A stretch of 64,000 nucleotides of DNA, from assembly GCA_963732385.1 (NCBI GenBank), contig CAVSZB010000007.1:480001-544000 (forward strand), read 5' to 3'. Positions 17,073-24,753 of the stretch are shown here, in pieces; position 1 is the first letter of the stretch, and each line of letters begins with the position of its first letter. The position numbers were made by a program, and so were the translations under genes. Under the pieces are notes generated by a model, which did no database searches, was not told the origin of the DNA, and saw only the letters and a list, made by a program, of their open reading frames with translations. The DNA is from an uncultured bacterium (lineage in GTDB: Bacteria; Krumholzibacteriota; Krumholzibacteriia; LZORAL124-64-63).

Positions 17073-18179
17073 TCAGAACGCATACTTCAGTTCATGCCGC
17101 CTGTTGCGCCCCAGTACCGGCGTGATCACCAGCCGTTCATAGTACTCCGCCCACCTCTGCGGCAACTTGATCCGGGTCCGGAACAGCCGTTCTTTCAGCA
17201 CCTCCTCCACTCGCAGCGGTCGATCGAGCATCCCCTTGAGCATCGCCGGCGTCTGTCGACATCGCTTTTCCCGCCGGTAATTCAGGTAGTTGCGCCAGGT
17301 CAGGAAGATCACCATCCGCTCCGACGAGCCCTGCCGCCGCTTCGACGCTGCGATCGTCTCCCGCTTGTGGTTGGCCTGGGCGTGCCGGAGGATCAGGTCG
17401 AGCAGGTTGATCTCGAACAGCAGGTTGTCCGCGTCCCGCCGCTGCGTTGATGGCGTGATGAGGTGATGGATCAGGCAGTCGAGCCCGCGGAAGGCCCGCG
17501 GATAGGCGCGGTGGTCGTCACTCCTGAGTGTCACCTCCGATTCGTGGGTCAGGACGGTTTCGAGCAGGTGGCGGACGTCCTTCTCGACCGCCCTGGGGTC
17601 GGGTCGGCCGAGGCGCAGTTCGAGCTGTTCGCGGCGGCGTTTCTGCTGGTCGGTCATGCGACCCTTGCGGCGCAAGGGGCTGTCGGAGAAGTACCAGAAG
17701 AAGCTGGTGTCGGCCTCGGCGAGCAGGTGGTGGTGGAAGGGGTGGTACTGGCTGAACTCGTAGGACTCGAAGCCGTCCAGGACGAGGTCACCCTGAGGAC
17801 GGACTCCGGCGATGAGCTGGGTGTGGAACAGCATGCAGTGGCGTCCGATGCGGGCGATGAGGCGATCGATGGTGGAGGGTGCGGCGCGGACATCGCGAGC
17901 GATCTGACGGTTGGCCATGCCGCCGACGGTCTTCAAGAAGATGAGTTGGGGCAGATCGGGACGTTTGAGCCAGTAGGTGGAGGCGAAGGTCTGTGAACTG
18001 AAGGAGCGGTGGCAGTGCAGACATGTAAACCTCTGGACACGGTGGGGGGCGATGAGACGGGCGAAGAAGCCGGCGCGCTTGAAGCGCCAGCCTGAGGTCA
18101 AGGTGTTGTGGTGCAGACAGTTGGGGTTGGGACAGAAGGGCGGGAGGAAACAGGTTGAGGGGTGATTGAGGGCGTCCAT
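17073..18179 (-). CDS. IS1-family-like single-ORF DDE transposase
   Basis: Zn ribbon CPNPNC..CLHC, HTH (NRQIARDV..STI), acidic motifs LDGFE / SDDHRAY / FEIN, RH..HKRET..SK and C-terminal TPAM. Confidence 0.75.
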   Translation of the reverse strand: MDALNHPSTCFLPPFCPNPNCLHHNTLTSGWRFKRAGFFARLIAPHRVQRFTCLHCHRSFSSQTFASTYWLKRPDLPQLIFLKTVGGMANRQIARDVRAAPSTIDRLIARIGRHCMLFHTQLIAGVRPQGDLVLDGFESYEFSQYHPFHHHLLAEADTSFFWYFSDSPLRRKGRMTDQQKRRREQLELRLGRPDPRAVEKDVRHLLETVLTHESEVTLRSDDHRAYPRAFRGLDCLIHHLITPSTQRRDADNLLFEINLLDLILRHAQANHKRETIAASKRRQGSSERMVIFLTWRNYLNYRREKRCRQTPAMLKGMLDRPLRVEEVLKERLFRTRIKLPQRWAEYYERLVITPVLGRNRRHELKYAF

Positions 18180-18797: not shown

Positions 18798-18887
18798 CTA
18801 CTTCTTCTTGTGCCGGTTCTTGCGCAGGCGCTTCTTGCGTTTGTGCGTGGCGATCTTCTTGCGCTTGCGCTTCCTGCCGTTGGGCAT
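18798..18887 (-). CDS. Small basic ribosomal protein bS22 (AURKAIP1/COX24-like), 29 aa
   Basis: Hand translation MPNGRKRKRKKIATHKRKKRLRKNRHKKK; not in ORF track. Confidence 0.9.
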   Translation of the reverse strand: MPNGRKRKRKKIATHKRKKRLRKNRHKKK

Positions 18888-19022: not shown

Positions 19023-19310
19023 TCAGTCGGCCTCGCCATCGTTCAGCCGCGCTTTCAACTCATTGGAAGCCTTGAAATAGGGCACCAGCTTGGCCGGGAC
19101 CATGACCGAATCTCCACTGCGGGGGTTGCGGGCTGTCCGGGAACGCCGACTCTTCACCTTGAAACTGCCGAAGCCGCGCAGTTCGACCTTGTCGCTCGAT
19201 TCGAGGGCGCGGCTGATATTATCGAGGATCAGGTTCACCACGACCCCCGTGTCCTTCTTGCTGACGCCCGTCTTGGCGGCGATCACTTCGACCAGCTCGG
19301 CCTTCGTCAT
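19023..19310 (-). CDS. HU/IHF-family DNA-binding protein
   Basis: MTKAELVE...VELRGFGSF...ARNPRSG...PYFKAS. Confidence 0.95.
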   Translation of the reverse strand: MTKAELVEVIAAKTGVSKKDTGVVVNLILDNISRALESSDKVELRGFGSFKVKSRRSRTARNPRSGDSVMVPAKLVPYFKASNELKARLNDGEAD

Positions 19311-19435: not shown

Positions 19436-19726
19436 CTAAATCCCTATATCCGAAGACGATCCCCCGCCGCCCATCGCATCGACTCGCCCCACGATGACTG
19501 AGCGGATCGGACCGTCGCGCCCCAGAACCAGGGCCGCCGAACCCCCCTCATCGCAGAGCAGGACCTGTTCACCCGGCCCGGCGTCGGCCAGATCGACAGC
19601 CAGCAAGGGAGCGCCGCACGGGGCATCCCTGAGGTCGACCGGCTGCACAATAAGCAGCTTGCGGCCCGCCAGAGCCTCGTGCTTGACGGTGGCCACCACA
19701 TCCCCCACCACCCGGCAGACCTTCAC
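19436..19726 (-). CDS. BMC pentamer (EutN/CcmL family)
   Basis: RVVGDVVATVKH...AVDLADAGPGE...IVGRVD. Confidence 0.92.
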   Translation of the reverse strand: MKVCRVVGDVVATVKHEALAGRKLLIVQPVDLRDAPCGAPLLAVDLADAGPGEQVLLCDEGGSAALVLGRDGPIRSVIVGRVDAMGGGGSSSDIGI

Positions 19727-20010
19727 GGCATCCCTCCCGGCCAGGGCGCGTAGCGGACTTCGTCCACGATGCCAAGAATGGCGGCGTCGACCGGGTTGAA
19801 CGGATCCGGCAGGGCCTTGGCGGCTTCGCGCGAGGCGACCCAGAAGACCAGATCGCCCGGTCCGGCACGTGCCGTATCGACCGCCACTAACGGATCCCCG
19901 GCCGGTTCCAGCGCAAAGGTCAGCGGCGCGATCACGAGCAGCCGCTGACCGCGCAGGCCGGGGGACTTGATTGTGGCGACACAGGTCCCGACCACGCGCG
20001 CGAGCTGCAT
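19723..20010 (-). CDS. BMC pentamer (EutN/CcmL family)
   Basis: [15 protein letters not shown]...AVDTARAGPGD...SREAA...VDAAILGIVD. Confidence 0.92.
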   Translation of the reverse strand: MQLARVVGTCVATIKSPGLRGQRLLVIAPLTFALEPAGDPLVAVDTARAGPGDLVFWVASREAAKALPDPFNPVDAAILGIVDEVRYAPWPGGMP

Positions 20011-20011
20011 C

Positions 20012-20626
20012 TCACCCCTCCGGAAGACCGTCGAAGGGGGGAATGTCCCCCAGCAGATCGCGGTCAAGCCAGCGCCGGAGGTCGGCATGGGGCGCCGGGA
20101 TGACTTCGCTGCCGACCAGGAATTCACTGTGGGCCACCGCAGCGCGCGCGGCGGCCACGGCCGCCTCCACGTCGGCCTGCGGACCGCACAACTGCAGGAA
20201 ACCCTTGCCGCCGATGCCGTGCGCCAGCCGCAGGCGATCGAGTCGCACGCCCGCCGCCTTCAACGCGGCATCCGCGGCCCGCACGGCAGCGGCACAGGTC
20301 GTGGTTTCGACCAGGCCGAGCGCCTCTCCGGCAACCCGCCCCGCTCCCGGACGCAGCCCCTCCGGCACGCCAGGATGGAGATCGGCCAGAAAAAGGGCGT
20401 CGACAAGGTGGCAGGCGGCACGCGCGATGCCACTGGCCACGGCCGCTTCGACCGGGGCGACCTCGCCGTCCACCGCGATCAGAAGGCGCCCCCCGGAGAC
20501 CGGCGCCAGCAGCGTGAGACGGACCGGCGCGGTCTTCACCATAACGTCAGCGACGACCACGCCGCGCGCCAGATCCCGGGTCTCCACAAAACCGAGGCTG
20601 CGCCGTCCGGGCGGGTTCGGTTGCAC
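20012..20626 (-). CDS. BMC-T tandem-domain shell protein
   Basis: Two BMC domains: SLGFVET..ADVMVKTA and ALGLVET..ADAALKAA..GIGGKG..VIPAPH; GTG after GGAGGAGG. Confidence 0.9.
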   Translation of the reverse strand: MQPNPPGRRSLGFVETRDLARGVVVADVMVKTAPVRLTLLAPVSGGRLLIAVDGEVAPVEAAVASGIARAACHLVDALFLADLHPGVPEGLRPGAGRVAGEALGLVETTTCAAAVRAADAALKAAGVRLDRLRLAHGIGGKGFLQLCGPQADVEAAVAAARAAVAHSEFLVGSEVIPAPHADLRRWLDRDLLGDIPPFDGLPEG

Positions 20627-20639
20627 GCTGGTCCTCCTC

Positions 20640-22154
20640 CTAGACGATGCGGAACGATCCGACCAGAACACAGCGGCGCCGCCGGCAGAAGCTGCGCGCG
20701 TCGGTCAGTCCCTCACCCGTGGGCGAGGCGATCGTGAAACTTGTCGGTCCCTCGCCACCGGCGCCGAGGCCGGCGGCACAAGATCCGTTCTTGACGAAAA
20801 TGGAACTGTCGATACGCCGGGCCATCAGGCTGAGCATGGCAACGTCCCGCGAGTGCATCATCGCCGTGTGGCGATTGCCCCGCTCGAAGCGCACCGCCAT
20901 CTCGATCGCCTCCCGGACATCGGGCGCCACCACCACCGGTAGTACCGGCAACATCTGCTCCGTCCAGACGAGCGGGTGCTCGGGCGGGACCAACGCCAGC
21001 GCCAGCGGCGGGTCGCCGGTCGTCTGCACGAGGGCAGCGCGCAGGATGCGCGCGGCGTCCTTTCCAATCCACTGCCGATTGATCACCGCCGGTCGGCCGG
21101 GCCCCCTGTTCTCAGCGAGGATGGTCTCCTCCACGCGCACCAGTTCCGCCGGAGTCAGCACGTGGCAGCCGAGGGCCGCCATGGCCTCGATCAGTTGGGA
21201 CGCGATCCGCTCCACGGCCACCGCGACCTTCTCCGCCACGCAGATAATGTTGTTGTCGAACGACGCCCCCGCCACGATGCAGCGGGCCGCGTCGGCGATG
21301 TCCGCCGTGGCATCCACGACCGCCGGCGGATTGCCGGCGCCGGCCGCGATCACCTTCTTGCCCGAGGCGAGAGCTGCCTTGACGACCGCGGGGCCGCCGG
21401 TGACCACGACCAGCCGCACGTCGCGATGGCGCATCAGCGCCTGGGCCGTGTCGATCGTCGGTTCGGCGCAGGCGTGCAGAGGATCGACCGGCGAGCCGGC
21501 GCCGCGCGCCGCGGCGTTGATGATCCGGATCGTCTCGGCCGTGACCCGCCGCGCGCTGGGATGGGCGTTGAACACCACTGTATTGCCACCCGACAGCATG
21601 CTGATGGCATTGTTGATGACAGTTTCGCTCGGATTGGTCACCGGCGTGATGGCTGTGATGACGCCGAAGGGGGCGAACTCGGTCAGGGTGAGGCCGTCAT
21701 CGCCGCTCGTGGCGTCTACGGTGAGGATCTCCGGTCCGGGGGTCTTCGTGATGACGAGGCGGTTCTTCGCGATCTTGTGTGGGACCCGTCCCAGCCCGGT
21801 CTCCTCCACGGCGGCGCGCGCCAGATCATCCACCCGGGCGAGCAACGCGGCACGCACGGCGGCGATGATCTGCTCCCGCTGGCGCAGCGGCAGCTCGCGG
21901 AACCGGGCGAAGGCCGCGAGCGCCGCGGCGACCGCCGCGTCGGGATCGGCGTGCAGTCCCCCGACGCTTCCCGCCCCGACGCGCGTACCCGATACCGGCG
22001 ACGGATCGTCGAACCGTTTCCACGCCGCCGGCGAAACGACCGCCGTCGGTCCTTCCGGGACGGAATCCGCCGCCGCCGCGCCGGTCCGCGCCAGATTGCG
22101 TCGGACGGCAGCACGGATGGTCTCGTCAAGAGGAGACCCGCCAGCCCGCGTCAT
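20640..22154 (-). CDS. CoA-acylating aldehyde dehydrogenase (EutE/PduP type) with N-terminal encapsulation peptide
   Basis: PFGVI..ITPVTNP, TGGPAVV, AGAGNPP, FDNNIIC, FTIASPTGEG; N-terminal helix LDETIRAAVRRNL. Confidence 0.93.
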   Translation of the reverse strand: MTRAGGSPLDETIRAAVRRNLARTGAAAADSVPEGPTAVVSPAAWKRFDDPSPVSGTRVGAGSVGGLHADPDAAVAAALAAFARFRELPLRQREQIIAAVRAALLARVDDLARAAVEETGLGRVPHKIAKNRLVITKTPGPEILTVDATSGDDGLTLTEFAPFGVITAITPVTNPSETVINNAISMLSGGNTVVFNAHPSARRVTAETIRIINAAARGAGSPVDPLHACAEPTIDTAQALMRHRDVRLVVVTGGPAVVKAALASGKKVIAAGAGNPPAVVDATADIADAARCIVAGASFDNNIICVAEKVAVAVERIASQLIEAMAALGCHVLTPAELVRVEETILAENRGPGRPAVINRQWIGKDAARILRAALVQTTGDPPLALALVPPEHPLVWTEQMLPVLPVVVAPDVREAIEMAVRFERGNRHTAMMHSRDVAMLSLMARRIDSSIFVKNGSCAAGLGAGGEGPTSFTIASPTGEGLTDARSFCRRRRCVLVGSFRIV

Positions 22155-22176
22155 CGATTACTCCGTCGTGTTCAGG

Positions 22177-22473
22177 CTACCGCGGGCTCTTGGTGAAACG
22201 CACCGCTCCGTCCGCGTCGACCACATCCACGATGGCCATGATCGTACAGTCGACCGGCCGCCCGTCGGTGGCGGCCGTCAGGCGCGCGGAAGAGCCGGAG
22301 GCGTGCAGCACGACCTCACCCTCGCCCGCGCCGACGGCATCGACCGCCACCAGGAAGACTCCCTTGCCCTGCCCTGCGAGATCACAATTCTCGAGCAGCA
22401 GCAGCGTGGAGCCTTCCAGTTTGGGGTCTTTCCGGGACGCGACGACCGTGCCCACCACTCTCGCCAATTGCAC
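22177..22473 (-). CDS. BMC pentamer (EutN/CcmL family)
   Basis: [16 protein letters not shown]...[11 protein letters not shown]...GSSAR...IMAIVD. Confidence 0.94.
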
Positions 22474-22482
22474 GGAATCGCC

Positions 22483-22770
22483 TCACTCCTCCGCGACGCC
22501 GCCGATCGGCAGCGCTTCCTGCACGTTGCGGTGCGGGCGCGGGATGACATGGACGCTGACCAACTCGCCGACCTTGCTGGCCGCCGCGGCGCCGGCGTCC
22601 GTGGCCGCCTTGACGGCCGCGACATCGCCGCGCACGATCGCGGTGACGAATCCGCCGCCGATCTTCTCATAGCCCACCAGGTGAACGTTCGCGGCCTTCA
22701 CCATGGCATCGCTGGCTTCGACCATCGCCACGAAGCCGCGGGTCTCGATCATGCCGAGAGCTTCCTTCAT
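22483..22770 (-). CDS. BMC-H hexamer shell protein (EutM/PduA type)
   Basis: [10 protein letters not shown]...[11 protein letters not shown]...[10 protein letters not shown]...HVIPRPH. Confidence 0.96.
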
Positions 22771-22841: not shown

Positions 22842-22870
22842 ACACTATCATCCGCGTAGGGGGCTGTCAA
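22842..22870 (-). promoter_or_regulatory. sigma70-type promoter of BMC operon
   Basis: TTGACA-N17-TAGTGT with TGn extended -10. Confidence 0.65.
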
Positions 22871-22883
22871 TTCGGGGGTTGGC

Positions 22884-23038
22884 AAATAGTTGCGCCCCCG
22901 GTCCGGAGGCGCAATACGACGGAGGGGCATAACAATGTTCCCCACTGCCACCGCGTGCCCGCCGGAAGATACCTACCACACTGAAAGCGTAGGCGCTTCG
23001 ACGGACAAGGCGCGTGCGGCGCAGGAAACATTGTTGCC
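22884..23038 (-). ncRNA. Candidate structured small RNA of about 155 nt (rod plus terminator)
   Basis: Nested stems whose G-U pairs form on the minus strand, a 3' hairpin at 22890-22914, and an upstream -24/-12 promoter pointing at the first stem. Confidence 0.6.
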
Positions 23039-23046
23039 GGTCGTGC

Positions 23047-23062
23047 ATCAAACAGCGTGCCA
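23047..23062 (-). promoter_or_regulatory. sigma54-type promoter (variant -12) of candidate sRNA
   Basis: TGGCAC-GCTGT-TTGAT; predicted +1 near 23036. Confidence 0.55.
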
Positions 23063-23215: not shown

Positions 23216-24634
23216 TCAGGCGCCGGCAGCGAGCGCGGTCAGCAGAGCCGCCTGCTCCGGTCCGAAGAGGCAACCGCGGCGGGCCGTGACGACCCGCGCC
23301 ACCTCGGCCGCCCGCTCACCGTCGAAGCGCGGCCCCCCGGGATCGCCCCAGGTGAAATTGGGCAGGTACTTCGGCGGAAAGCCGGCGCCGAAGACATTGC
23401 TCGCATACCCCACGACGGTGGCGGTGTTGAACAACGTACCGATGGCGCTCTTGGCGTGCTCGCCCATCATCAGACCCACGAACCGCAGCCCGGAGCCGAT
23501 CTCGCCGAGGCCATAGTCGACGCGCACCGGGCCGTAGTTGTTCTTCAGGTCGCTGCAGGTCGTGCCGGCGCCGAGATTGACCCAGCTCCCCAGCGCCGCG
23601 TGCCCAATAAATCCGTCGTGCTGCTTGTTGCCGAAATCCAGAAAGAGGCTCTCGCTGATTTCCCCGGCAACGCGGCAACCGACGCCGATGGAGGTTTCCC
23701 CGAAAATTCGGGCGCCGGACTTGATGATAGCGCCCGGCCCCACGTAGAGCGGTCCCTGCAGATAGACATGCGGCTGCACCGTCACCGCGCGGTCGAGCAC
23801 CACCGGTCCCGGGCCGGCGTCCACCACGACTCCAGGGGCGATCCGTGTCTCGGGCCCCGTCCAGACCGGCCCGCCGACGATGCTGACGCCGGGTCGCTCG
23901 CTGAGCGGGCCGAAAAAGCCTGCCGATTCCCAGGGGGCGCCTGCGGGCCAGGCCGCCGGGTCGGTAACGATGCCGAACGGGCGTCGGTGCAACGACAGAC
24001 CCCCGCCGCAGATCCGCGGCGCGTCCGCTGCGATCGCGGGGCCGAGCGCGGCCACGATGTCCCACAGATGGGCGAAGGCGGGGGGAATCCCGGCGGTCGC
24101 GGAGGCAAAGACCGGGCGCCACGCCGCCACCTTCGGGCCGGAGCGCGCGACCGCGGGAACGAAGCGGGGCGCCCGTTGCTGCCCCGCCGTCCAGATCCCG
24201 GCGCAGTCGGCGTCCGCATCCCAGACGCCCCAAGCGTCGAGAAAAGCGAGCGCCGGCTCCGGCGCCAGACGGCACGCCAGCAGGGAATCGCCCTCCCACC
24301 AGGCCCAGTCGGCGTCCGCACCGGCGGCAACCAGGGCCGCGAGCTGCGACCAATCAGGTCCGAGCCGGGCGTTCAGGTACAGGGCCCCCGCCGGCGCCAC
24401 CCGGAGGCGGCAGGCGTCGGGCCCGACCGCCACGCCATCCGCCACGGTGGCCTGCTGCAGCGGCAGGAGCAGCCGGCGCGGCAGCAGTCCTGGCGTTTCC
24501 CCCCCCGCCAGATACTGCACCCGCTCGCGCAGGGCGAGCATGCCGCAGCGGATTTCGTAAACCGGAAGACTCCAGCTCAGGGGCCGAAAGTCCTCGGCGG
24601 AATGGTCCTCGAACAGGACGACGATCGGCTCCAC
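23216..24634 (-). CDS. GlmU-related sugar nucleotidyltransferase-like protein with hexapeptide beta-helix
   Basis: FRPLSWSLPVYEIRCG N-domain; GEISES...NKQHDGFIGHA.LGSWVNLGAGTTCSDLKNNY; GTG start after GGGAGG. Confidence 0.82.
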   Translation of the reverse strand: MEPIVVLFEDHSAEDFRPLSWSLPVYEIRCGMLALRERVQYLAGGETPGLLPRRLLLPLQQATVADGVAVGPDACRLRVAPAGALYLNARLGPDWSQLAALVAAGADADWAWWEGDSLLACRLAPEPALAFLDAWGVWDADADCAGIWTAGQQRAPRFVPAVARSGPKVAAWRPVFASATAGIPPAFAHLWDIVAALGPAIAADAPRICGGGLSLHRRPFGIVTDPAAWPAGAPWESAGFFGPLSERPGVSIVGGPVWTGPETRIAPGVVVDAGPGPVVLDRAVTVQPHVYLQGPLYVGPGAIIKSGARIFGETSIGVGCRVAGEISESLFLDFGNKQHDGFIGHAALGSWVNLGAGTTCSDLKNNYGPVRVDYGLGEIGSGLRFVGLMMGEHAKSAIGTLFNTATVVGYASNVFGAGFPPKYLPNFTWGDPGGPRFDGERAAEVARVVTARRGCLFGPEQAALLTALAAGA

Positions 24635-24753
24635 GCGGCGACCTCCCGGCGGCGTCATCAGCCCCGCGAATGCGGTGGGGCGGCACGCGCCAACCGGGGT
24701 ATGGTAGCGGCGCGCCGCGGCAGGCACCAGTCGAATTGCGGCGCGCAGGCGCG

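Follow-up and report, generated by a model that had tools for sequence, protein, structure and literature searches.

A phylum-wide rod-shaped RNA, predicted to be sigma54-driven, that resembles the terminal stem of 6S RNA

The locus and its neighbours

We analysed a 64,000-nucleotide stretch of a Krumholzibacteriota genome, referred to here as the window, in which a conserved rod-shaped RNA is predicted at 22927..23037 on the minus strand, the strand of every window feature described below. Upstream lies a gene for a GlmU-like sugar nucleotidyltransferase (23216..24655, PF13562), and downstream a microcompartment (BMC) operon (19436..22770) with Pfam matches to BMC-H, BMC-P, aldehyde dehydrogenase, tandem-BMC and two BMC-P proteins. 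The operon is compact, holding shell genes and the aldehyde dehydrogenase with no other enzyme, and it is a neighbour of the element rather than a part of it. The HU/IHF-family gene beyond it (19023..19310, PF00216) is the usual downstream neighbour of the rod.

The rod is a single-copy element with a predicted length of ~100-110 nt, supported by model matches, a fold z of -6.28 for the stretch, and covariation. Its stems are where the first-pass annotation had placed them, with 13 of 13 pairs between 23035-23023 and 22943-22931, 9 of 9 between 23007-22999 and 22964-22956, and GCCUAC facing GUAGGU around a 12-nt loop. This apical 6-bp helix and loop (22971..22994) stand at the position where 6S RNA has its central bubble and -35 arm. 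The basal part carries a 6S terminal-stem signature, identified by comparison with 28 6S RNAs, a 6S-only profile, a 6S-only covariance model and anchored counts; its 5′ arm (23006..23030) reads CCUG, 7 nt, CGCG, a 3-nt bulge and UG, and its 3′ arm (22935..22958) reads GCACGCG-GU, a spacer and GUGGGGAA. The predicted sigma54 promoter is likewise found as first described, with TGGCAC-N5-TTGA at 23062-23048 (23048..23062), the -24 GG at 23061-23060, the -12 element at 23049-23048 and a predicted +1 near 23036. Beyond the rod, a terminator-like 11-bp hairpin with a weak U tail (22884..22914; 11 of 11 pairs in 22914-22890, then CUAUUU) was not called by a terminator scan and is a lineage-specific addition.

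A sigma70-like promoter at 22842..22870 is predicted to drive the downstream operon separately. The earlier proposal of such a promoter for the BMC operon stands as far as the sequence TTGACA-17-TAGTGT is concerned (22870-22842), but the -10 element matches at only 3 of 6 positions and went uncalled by a consensus scan. When the motif is defined loosely, 77 of 126 members have a sigma70-like site beyond the rod, against a mean of 37 in shuffles.

The first downstream gene, assigned by pattern tags at 128 loci, encodes an HU/IHF protein in 90, BMC-H in 19 and an SppA-like protein in 10, with 3 others and 6 loci that were too short. Since HU/IHF is next in 90 of the loci and BMC-H in only 19, the microcompartment operon is a passenger at this site, and the position of the rod beside it is incidental; the functional link to the BMC locus that had been raised as a speculation thus falls away. 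The operon stands between the rod and the HU/IHF gene in a minority of genomes, and the 19 loci at which it comes first downstream belong to families f1, f2 and f6. Two further reading frames were noted in the neighbourhood. A very basic 29-aa ORF (18798-18887) directly follows the HU/IHF gene, in the same arrangement in several relatives, and may resemble small basic ribosome-associated proteins. A 368-aa ORF (17073-18179) looks like a transposase and has no Pfam match; in another genome (G020, locus L060), a sequence with a similar N-terminus begins 45 nt beyond the rod.

Conservation, folding and predicted promoter of the rod

At the Rfam gathering score, the whole window yielded two tRNAs only, and nothing relevant appeared at E<=10, so that the rod has no relevant match, whether to 6S or to SRP RNA, even at this permissive level. 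BLAST found the rod at 14 loci, and a first model built from these matched all 36 members of the family and 78 of the 151 genomes of the phylum. Synteny, that is, a position upstream of the HU/IHF gene and downstream of the GlmU-like gene, revealed diverged rods in every remaining family, in genomes that the first model had missed. A second model, of 81 non-redundant members, found a match in 123 of 128 genomes that are at least 90% complete, many of which had themselves contributed to the model, and covered 61 of 63 genera and all nine families of the phylum. One of its five misses (G051) has a rod by synteny, and the search also gave six weak second matches. The model matches are 102-115 nt long. 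The search for rods outside the phylum covered metagenomes, viruses and plasmids. In a metagenome scan with a promoter-plus-core pattern, which catches the CGTG/ACACG subtype only, the 109 matches were rods like the known ones together with chance matches, two of which were checked and lie inside reading frames. The 55 and 3 matches from two scans of viral sequences were unconvincing, and a plasmid scan gave no match.

The minus strand of the rod and second hairpin has a folding energy of -85.1 kcal/mol (z -5.54), which none of 200 shuffles equalled; for the plus strand the values are -66.7 (z -2.17) and 5 of 200 shuffles. Folds of single sequences gave z values from -6.3 to -2.5 for 13 members of f1 and from -6.1 to -1.2 for eight from other families. 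Across the 19 named pairs of the structure, 85.5% of cells can pair, against 73.5% in shuffles and 41-49% in slid controls, and there are 192 two-sided changes against 59 in shuffles; for these counts the structure was derived from the same sequences, kin are not independent, and in the outer stem the f3, f7 and f9 rows are shifted by one base. The covariation in relatives on which the first-pass annotation had made its reading depend is thus present as compensatory changes.

Every invariant position of the rod belongs to the basal stem: G-C in 73 of 73 sequences, a second G-C in 73 of 73, U-A in 70 of 71, U.G in 67 of 72 and C-G in 72 of 72, with a 6-nt spacer in 57 of 72. These anchored counts come from 73 sequences, f5 (8 rows) and G069 being left out, and are partly circular, in that the score used to choose the anchors favours pairing. 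The confinement of invariant positions to the basal stem points to sequence-specific reading. The apical helix and loop are conserved in sequence within families and differ between families, and the loops are C/U-rich. We conclude that the rod is real, structured and conserved throughout the phylum.

Of 126 members, 122 have a sigma54-type motif in the 37 nt that precede the rod, compared with 4 of 610 control windows. In the motif counts (n=126), G042, whose locus is cut short, and G069, for which the anchors failed, were dropped. The motif follows the general sigma54 consensus. As 45 of the 128 loci had been located through the promoter, the count that is free of this dependence is 79 or more of the 83 loci found with the RNA-only model. 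The -12 base of the rod promoter is A in 80 of 128 cases and C in 31, whereas C occupies this position in 14 of 24 strict sigma54 matches genome-wide; A in place of the usual C may tune activator dependence. The rpoN gene is present in 150 of 151 phylum genomes, and the source genome has 18 strong sigma54-activator matches among 23. The proposal of an independent small RNA gene is thus supported by conservation, covariation and a sigma54-type promoter, with no Rfam match, for an RNA that is itself predicted from sequence.

The 3′ end is where the first description has to be revised. A U-rich run follows the rod directly in 104 of 126 members, and a stable second hairpin occurs within 60 nt downstream in only 20 of 126, so the RNA is generally predicted to be ~100-110 nt long; a length of ~155 nt does not hold as a general one, the conserved unit being the ~100-nt rod. 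In the genus of the window, the RNA may extend to about 22885. Seven RNA runs from three studies held small shares of the region. In the four runs compared, all contigs come from related strains, none of those listed spans 22888-23008 and one ends at 22887; another 227 pieces lay beyond the listing, and this gap in cover does not weigh against transcription. At the 5′ side, members of f3, f7 and f9 (for example L082) have a leader ~8 nt longer with a conserved GCACGCGG just 5′ of the rod, identical to the 3′-strand motif of f1.

Likeness to the terminal stem of 6S RNA

6S RNA is nearly universal, and the source genome has a full-length copy at another locus (C7:316449-316622). The base of the rod shares the pattern CUG-N7-CG / CGGC-N5-GG with the consensus line of the Rfam 6S family, and placed side by side with 28 6S RNAs, the rod ends match the 6S ends in motif and spacing in all families. 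The first-pass statement that the RNA could not be assigned to a known family therefore needs qualifying: there is no Rfam match and the rod fails 6S membership, but its conserved base is the 6S terminal stem.

Position profiles made from the 28 6S ends only, run over both strands of the 3.8-Mb genome, ranked the 6S RNA first (55.4 bits), an unpaired coding site second (26.1) and the rod third (25.0). A 6S-only covariance model (26 6S RNAs, filters off) had the rod as its top match over 26 kb of the window, at 20.6 bits with the next match at 13.4; the alignment takes in both ends and passes over 102 model positions between them. At E<=0.01 this model recovered 22 of the 25 rod loci; it also gave up to 16.7 bits on unrelated hairpins and up to 17.8 bits on the antisense strands of rods, and a filtered genome-wide search with it missed the rod. 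The family medians of the 6S-end profile range from 26-31 (f3, f7, f8 and f9) and 14-20 (f1, f4 and f5) to 3.2 (f6) and -0.5 (f2).

The remainder of 6S RNA has no counterpart in the rod. The large central bubble of the 6S fold is absent from the rod folds, the internal arm with the -35-like region falls within the 102 skipped model positions, and the motifs at the edge of the 6S bubble do not occur in the rod above shuffles. The RF00013 model did not match the rod at E<=10 or any of 12 relative loci at E<=5. With no bubble, no -35 arm and about half the length (102-115 nt against a 6S median of 179 and the 180-200 nt usual for 6S RNAs), the rod is not a member of the 6S family, and even a loose sigma54 motif precedes only 1 of 28 6S genes.

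We also compared variation in the two RNAs. A CGAG motif variant is confined to f5 in both, occurring in 6 of 10 f5 6S RNAs and 0 of 28 others, and in 6 of 11 f5 rods and 0 of 116 others; within f5, a rod and the 6S RNA of its own genome agree in 8 of 10 genomes. When this was used as a prediction on five new genomes, it held in three and failed in two, and overall there was no own-genome covariation between rod and 6S (10.36 versus 10.33, p 0.46, 33 genomes). The 6S RNAs of f5 (L499-L508), which follow zapA, are diverged: a genome search missed 3 of 3, and a sensitive scan of five of the loci matched four, only one of them above the Rfam cut-off. Taken together, the sequence comparisons make it very probable that the rod and 6S RNA share a common origin or constraint.

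Possible functions and relation to known systems

PMC8876501 places the polymerase contacts of 6S RNA in the bubble, the adjoining helix and the -35 region, and reports that in E. coli polymerase binds without need of the terminal stem; as prior knowledge, this dispensability rests on the statement of that one paper. On this basis, the part kept in the rod is not the polymerase contact. A dispensable part that is kept under strong sequence constraint while the contacts are dropped is most simply read as a sign that another factor recognises the stem and that the rod competes for it. To our knowledge, no factor that binds the 6S terminal stem has been described.

We thus tentatively favour, at somewhat less than even likelihood, the reading that the rod is a sigma54-controlled decoy RNA of ~100 nt (a predicted length) for a protein that recognises the 6S terminal stem. 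The rod would have arisen by duplication and truncation of 6S RNA, and an enhancer-binding protein would turn on its own sigma54 promoter under some signal to give a ~100-nt RNA. This RNA would titrate a 6S-stem-binding factor, which might be a nuclease, an adaptor or a chaperone, and so alter the amount or the state of the genuine 6S RNA, tying sigma54 signalling to the availability of sigma70 polymerase much as GlmY shields GlmZ. RNase III was considered as such a partner; PMC3386247 reports that it binds the 6S RNA of S. aureus and does not cleave it. For the broader idea the balance is about even: that a 6S paralog reduced to the terminal stem and placed under sigma54 acts as a global transcription regulator, either titrating a stem-reading protein or binding polymerase without a bubble, and so links sigma54 signalling to sigma70 polymerase availability through a related RNA pair.

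Several observations count against a decoy. A pure stem decoy would have no need of the conservation that the apical loop shows within families; the f2 and f6 rods score poorly with the 6S-end profile; rod and 6S show no overall covariation and the CGAG prediction held in three of five genomes; and the 6S model scores of hairpins (16.7 bits) and antisense strands (17.8 bits), together with the miss in the filtered search, weigh in the same direction. The shared stem could also be only an inherited scaffold for stability or processing.

It is unlikely that the rod instead binds RNA polymerase, as core or as sigma54 holoenzyme, as a bubble-free mimic of a closed promoter that exerts negative feedback on sigma54 transcription. 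The rod retains the layout of the entire 6S downstream arm, rpoN is nearly ubiquitous in the phylum (150 of 151 genomes), and a truncated B. subtilis 6S-1 without the -35 region still binds, ~10-fold more weakly, according to PMC8876501; such truncated variants, however, retained the central bubble, which the rod lacks along with any bubble-edge motifs above shuffles. The -24 half of the rod's own promoter profile finds its best match in the most conserved 3′ motif (p 0.03-0.09), and the full profile finds its best match in the 5′ strand (p 0.008-0.13), but the -24 likeness was tested after being noticed, in two registers, no -12 match follows it, and f5 rods have lost it while the f5 RpoN box is unchanged. 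The 6S motif explains this likeness, and mimicry of a sigma54 promoter was rejected as the main reading, its support being weak and accounted for in this way.

Also unlikely, and slightly more so, is a base-pairing small RNA in which the 6S-derived stem is a scaffold and the C/U-rich apical loop, conserved within families, is a seed directed against ribosome-binding sites. In two f4 genomes of different genera, the apex of the rod is perfectly complementary to the leader of the genome's own ATP synthase operon, over 18 nt at L415 (G044:C14:30722) and 17 nt at L424 (G039:C6:92708), with one compensating change; both complements cover GAGGA-AUG, and both sides are partly in loops. Against this, the other 25 of 27 atp regions have complements of at most 11 nt, including that of G049, from the same genus as one of the positives, 4 of 4 f3/f9 genomes with a rod yielded no atpB, and the loop differs even within the genus of the window. 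Across 15 genomes searched with exact seeds, the 77 matches inspected out of 91 revealed no other shared target beyond one same-genus pair. The atp leader was accordingly rejected as a general target, only 2 of 27 regions matching at 17-18 nt. As a separate matter, the F-type ATP synthase subunit a was not found in G070, G088, G141, G087 and G063, which suggests that f3, f9 and part of f7 use another ATPase type.

That the sigma54 promoter reads the rod as a cis-acting leader or attenuator of the HU/IHF (or BMC) gene downstream is improbable. The rod is on the same strand as, and directly upstream of, the HU/IHF gene in 90 of 128 loci, its long stem and U-run resemble a terminator, and IHF assists sigma54 promoters, as described for glmY in PMC3045617. 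Nevertheless, the rod persists where the downstream gene is a different one (BMC-H in 19 loci, SppA-like in 10), 77 of 126 members have a separate sigma70-like promoter beyond the rod, no alternative fold appeared in the 21 single-sequence folds, and such a leader leaves the 6S motif unexplained. That the rod is not an RNA at all and is instead a DNA inverted repeat, a mobile-element scar or a small protein gene is hardly credible, for although its transcript is only predicted, the rod is single-copy (with outer ends that are not conserved, which also removes an integron attC or repeat element), folds with a strand bias, carries 192 two-sided changes against 59 in shuffles, and has no constant reading frame across 127 members, in which first-ATG frames run from <10 to >100 codons and 17 have no ATG, so that no conserved small ORF explains the region.

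A phylum that retains exactly the terminal stem of 6S RNA as a separate gene, predicted to be sigma54-driven, in almost every genome amounts to a natural experiment, and suggests that the stem has a job of its own. The rod, the 6S stem and motif mutants, used side by side, would be bait for a stem-reading protein, probably also in model bacteria, and since Rfam misses truncated 6S relatives, further ones may exist. In the literature searched, no 6S relative that is terminal-stem-only or sigma54-driven is described, although supplements, such as those of a bacteria-wide 6S survey, might list such loci, and no paper on non-coding RNA names this phylum.

Among known RNAs, 6S RNA (SsrS, RF00013) is the closest. 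Both have paired 5′ and 3′ ends, the same terminal-stem motif and spacing, and an arm composed of a helix, small loop, 4-bp helix, bulge, helix, internal loop and helix; the rod differs in its length (~100 against 179 nt), in having neither central bubble, -35 arm nor bubble-edge motifs, in its sigma54-type promoter and in its separate locus, and it coexists with a full 6S RNA. Ms1 RNA of actinobacteria, which is 6S-like and binds core polymerase, is much longer and has a bubble, whereas the rod has neither of these features nor an Rfam match; it bears on the alternative that the rod binds polymerase. The bacterial small SRP RNA (RF00169) is similar in size and rod shape but was rejected as an identity, with neither a match nor the SRP tetraloop domain at the rod and the genome's own SRP RNA elsewhere (C7:52789). 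Paralogs of the B. subtilis 6S-2 type also provide a second 6S-related RNA in one genome, and PMC8876501 describes them with a bubble and two arms, whereas the rod is the terminal arm only. GlmY of Enterobacteriaceae is, according to PMC4152352 and PMC3045617, a sigma54-driven homologous decoy of another RNA that acts by mimicry and protein sequestration; the rod resembles it in having a sigma54 promoter, as a motif, and homology, through the shared stem, to the RNA that it would protect, here 6S RNA. It is an analogy of working only, as the rod has no Rfam match to GlmY or GlmZ and resembles 6S RNA rather than a base-pairing RNA.
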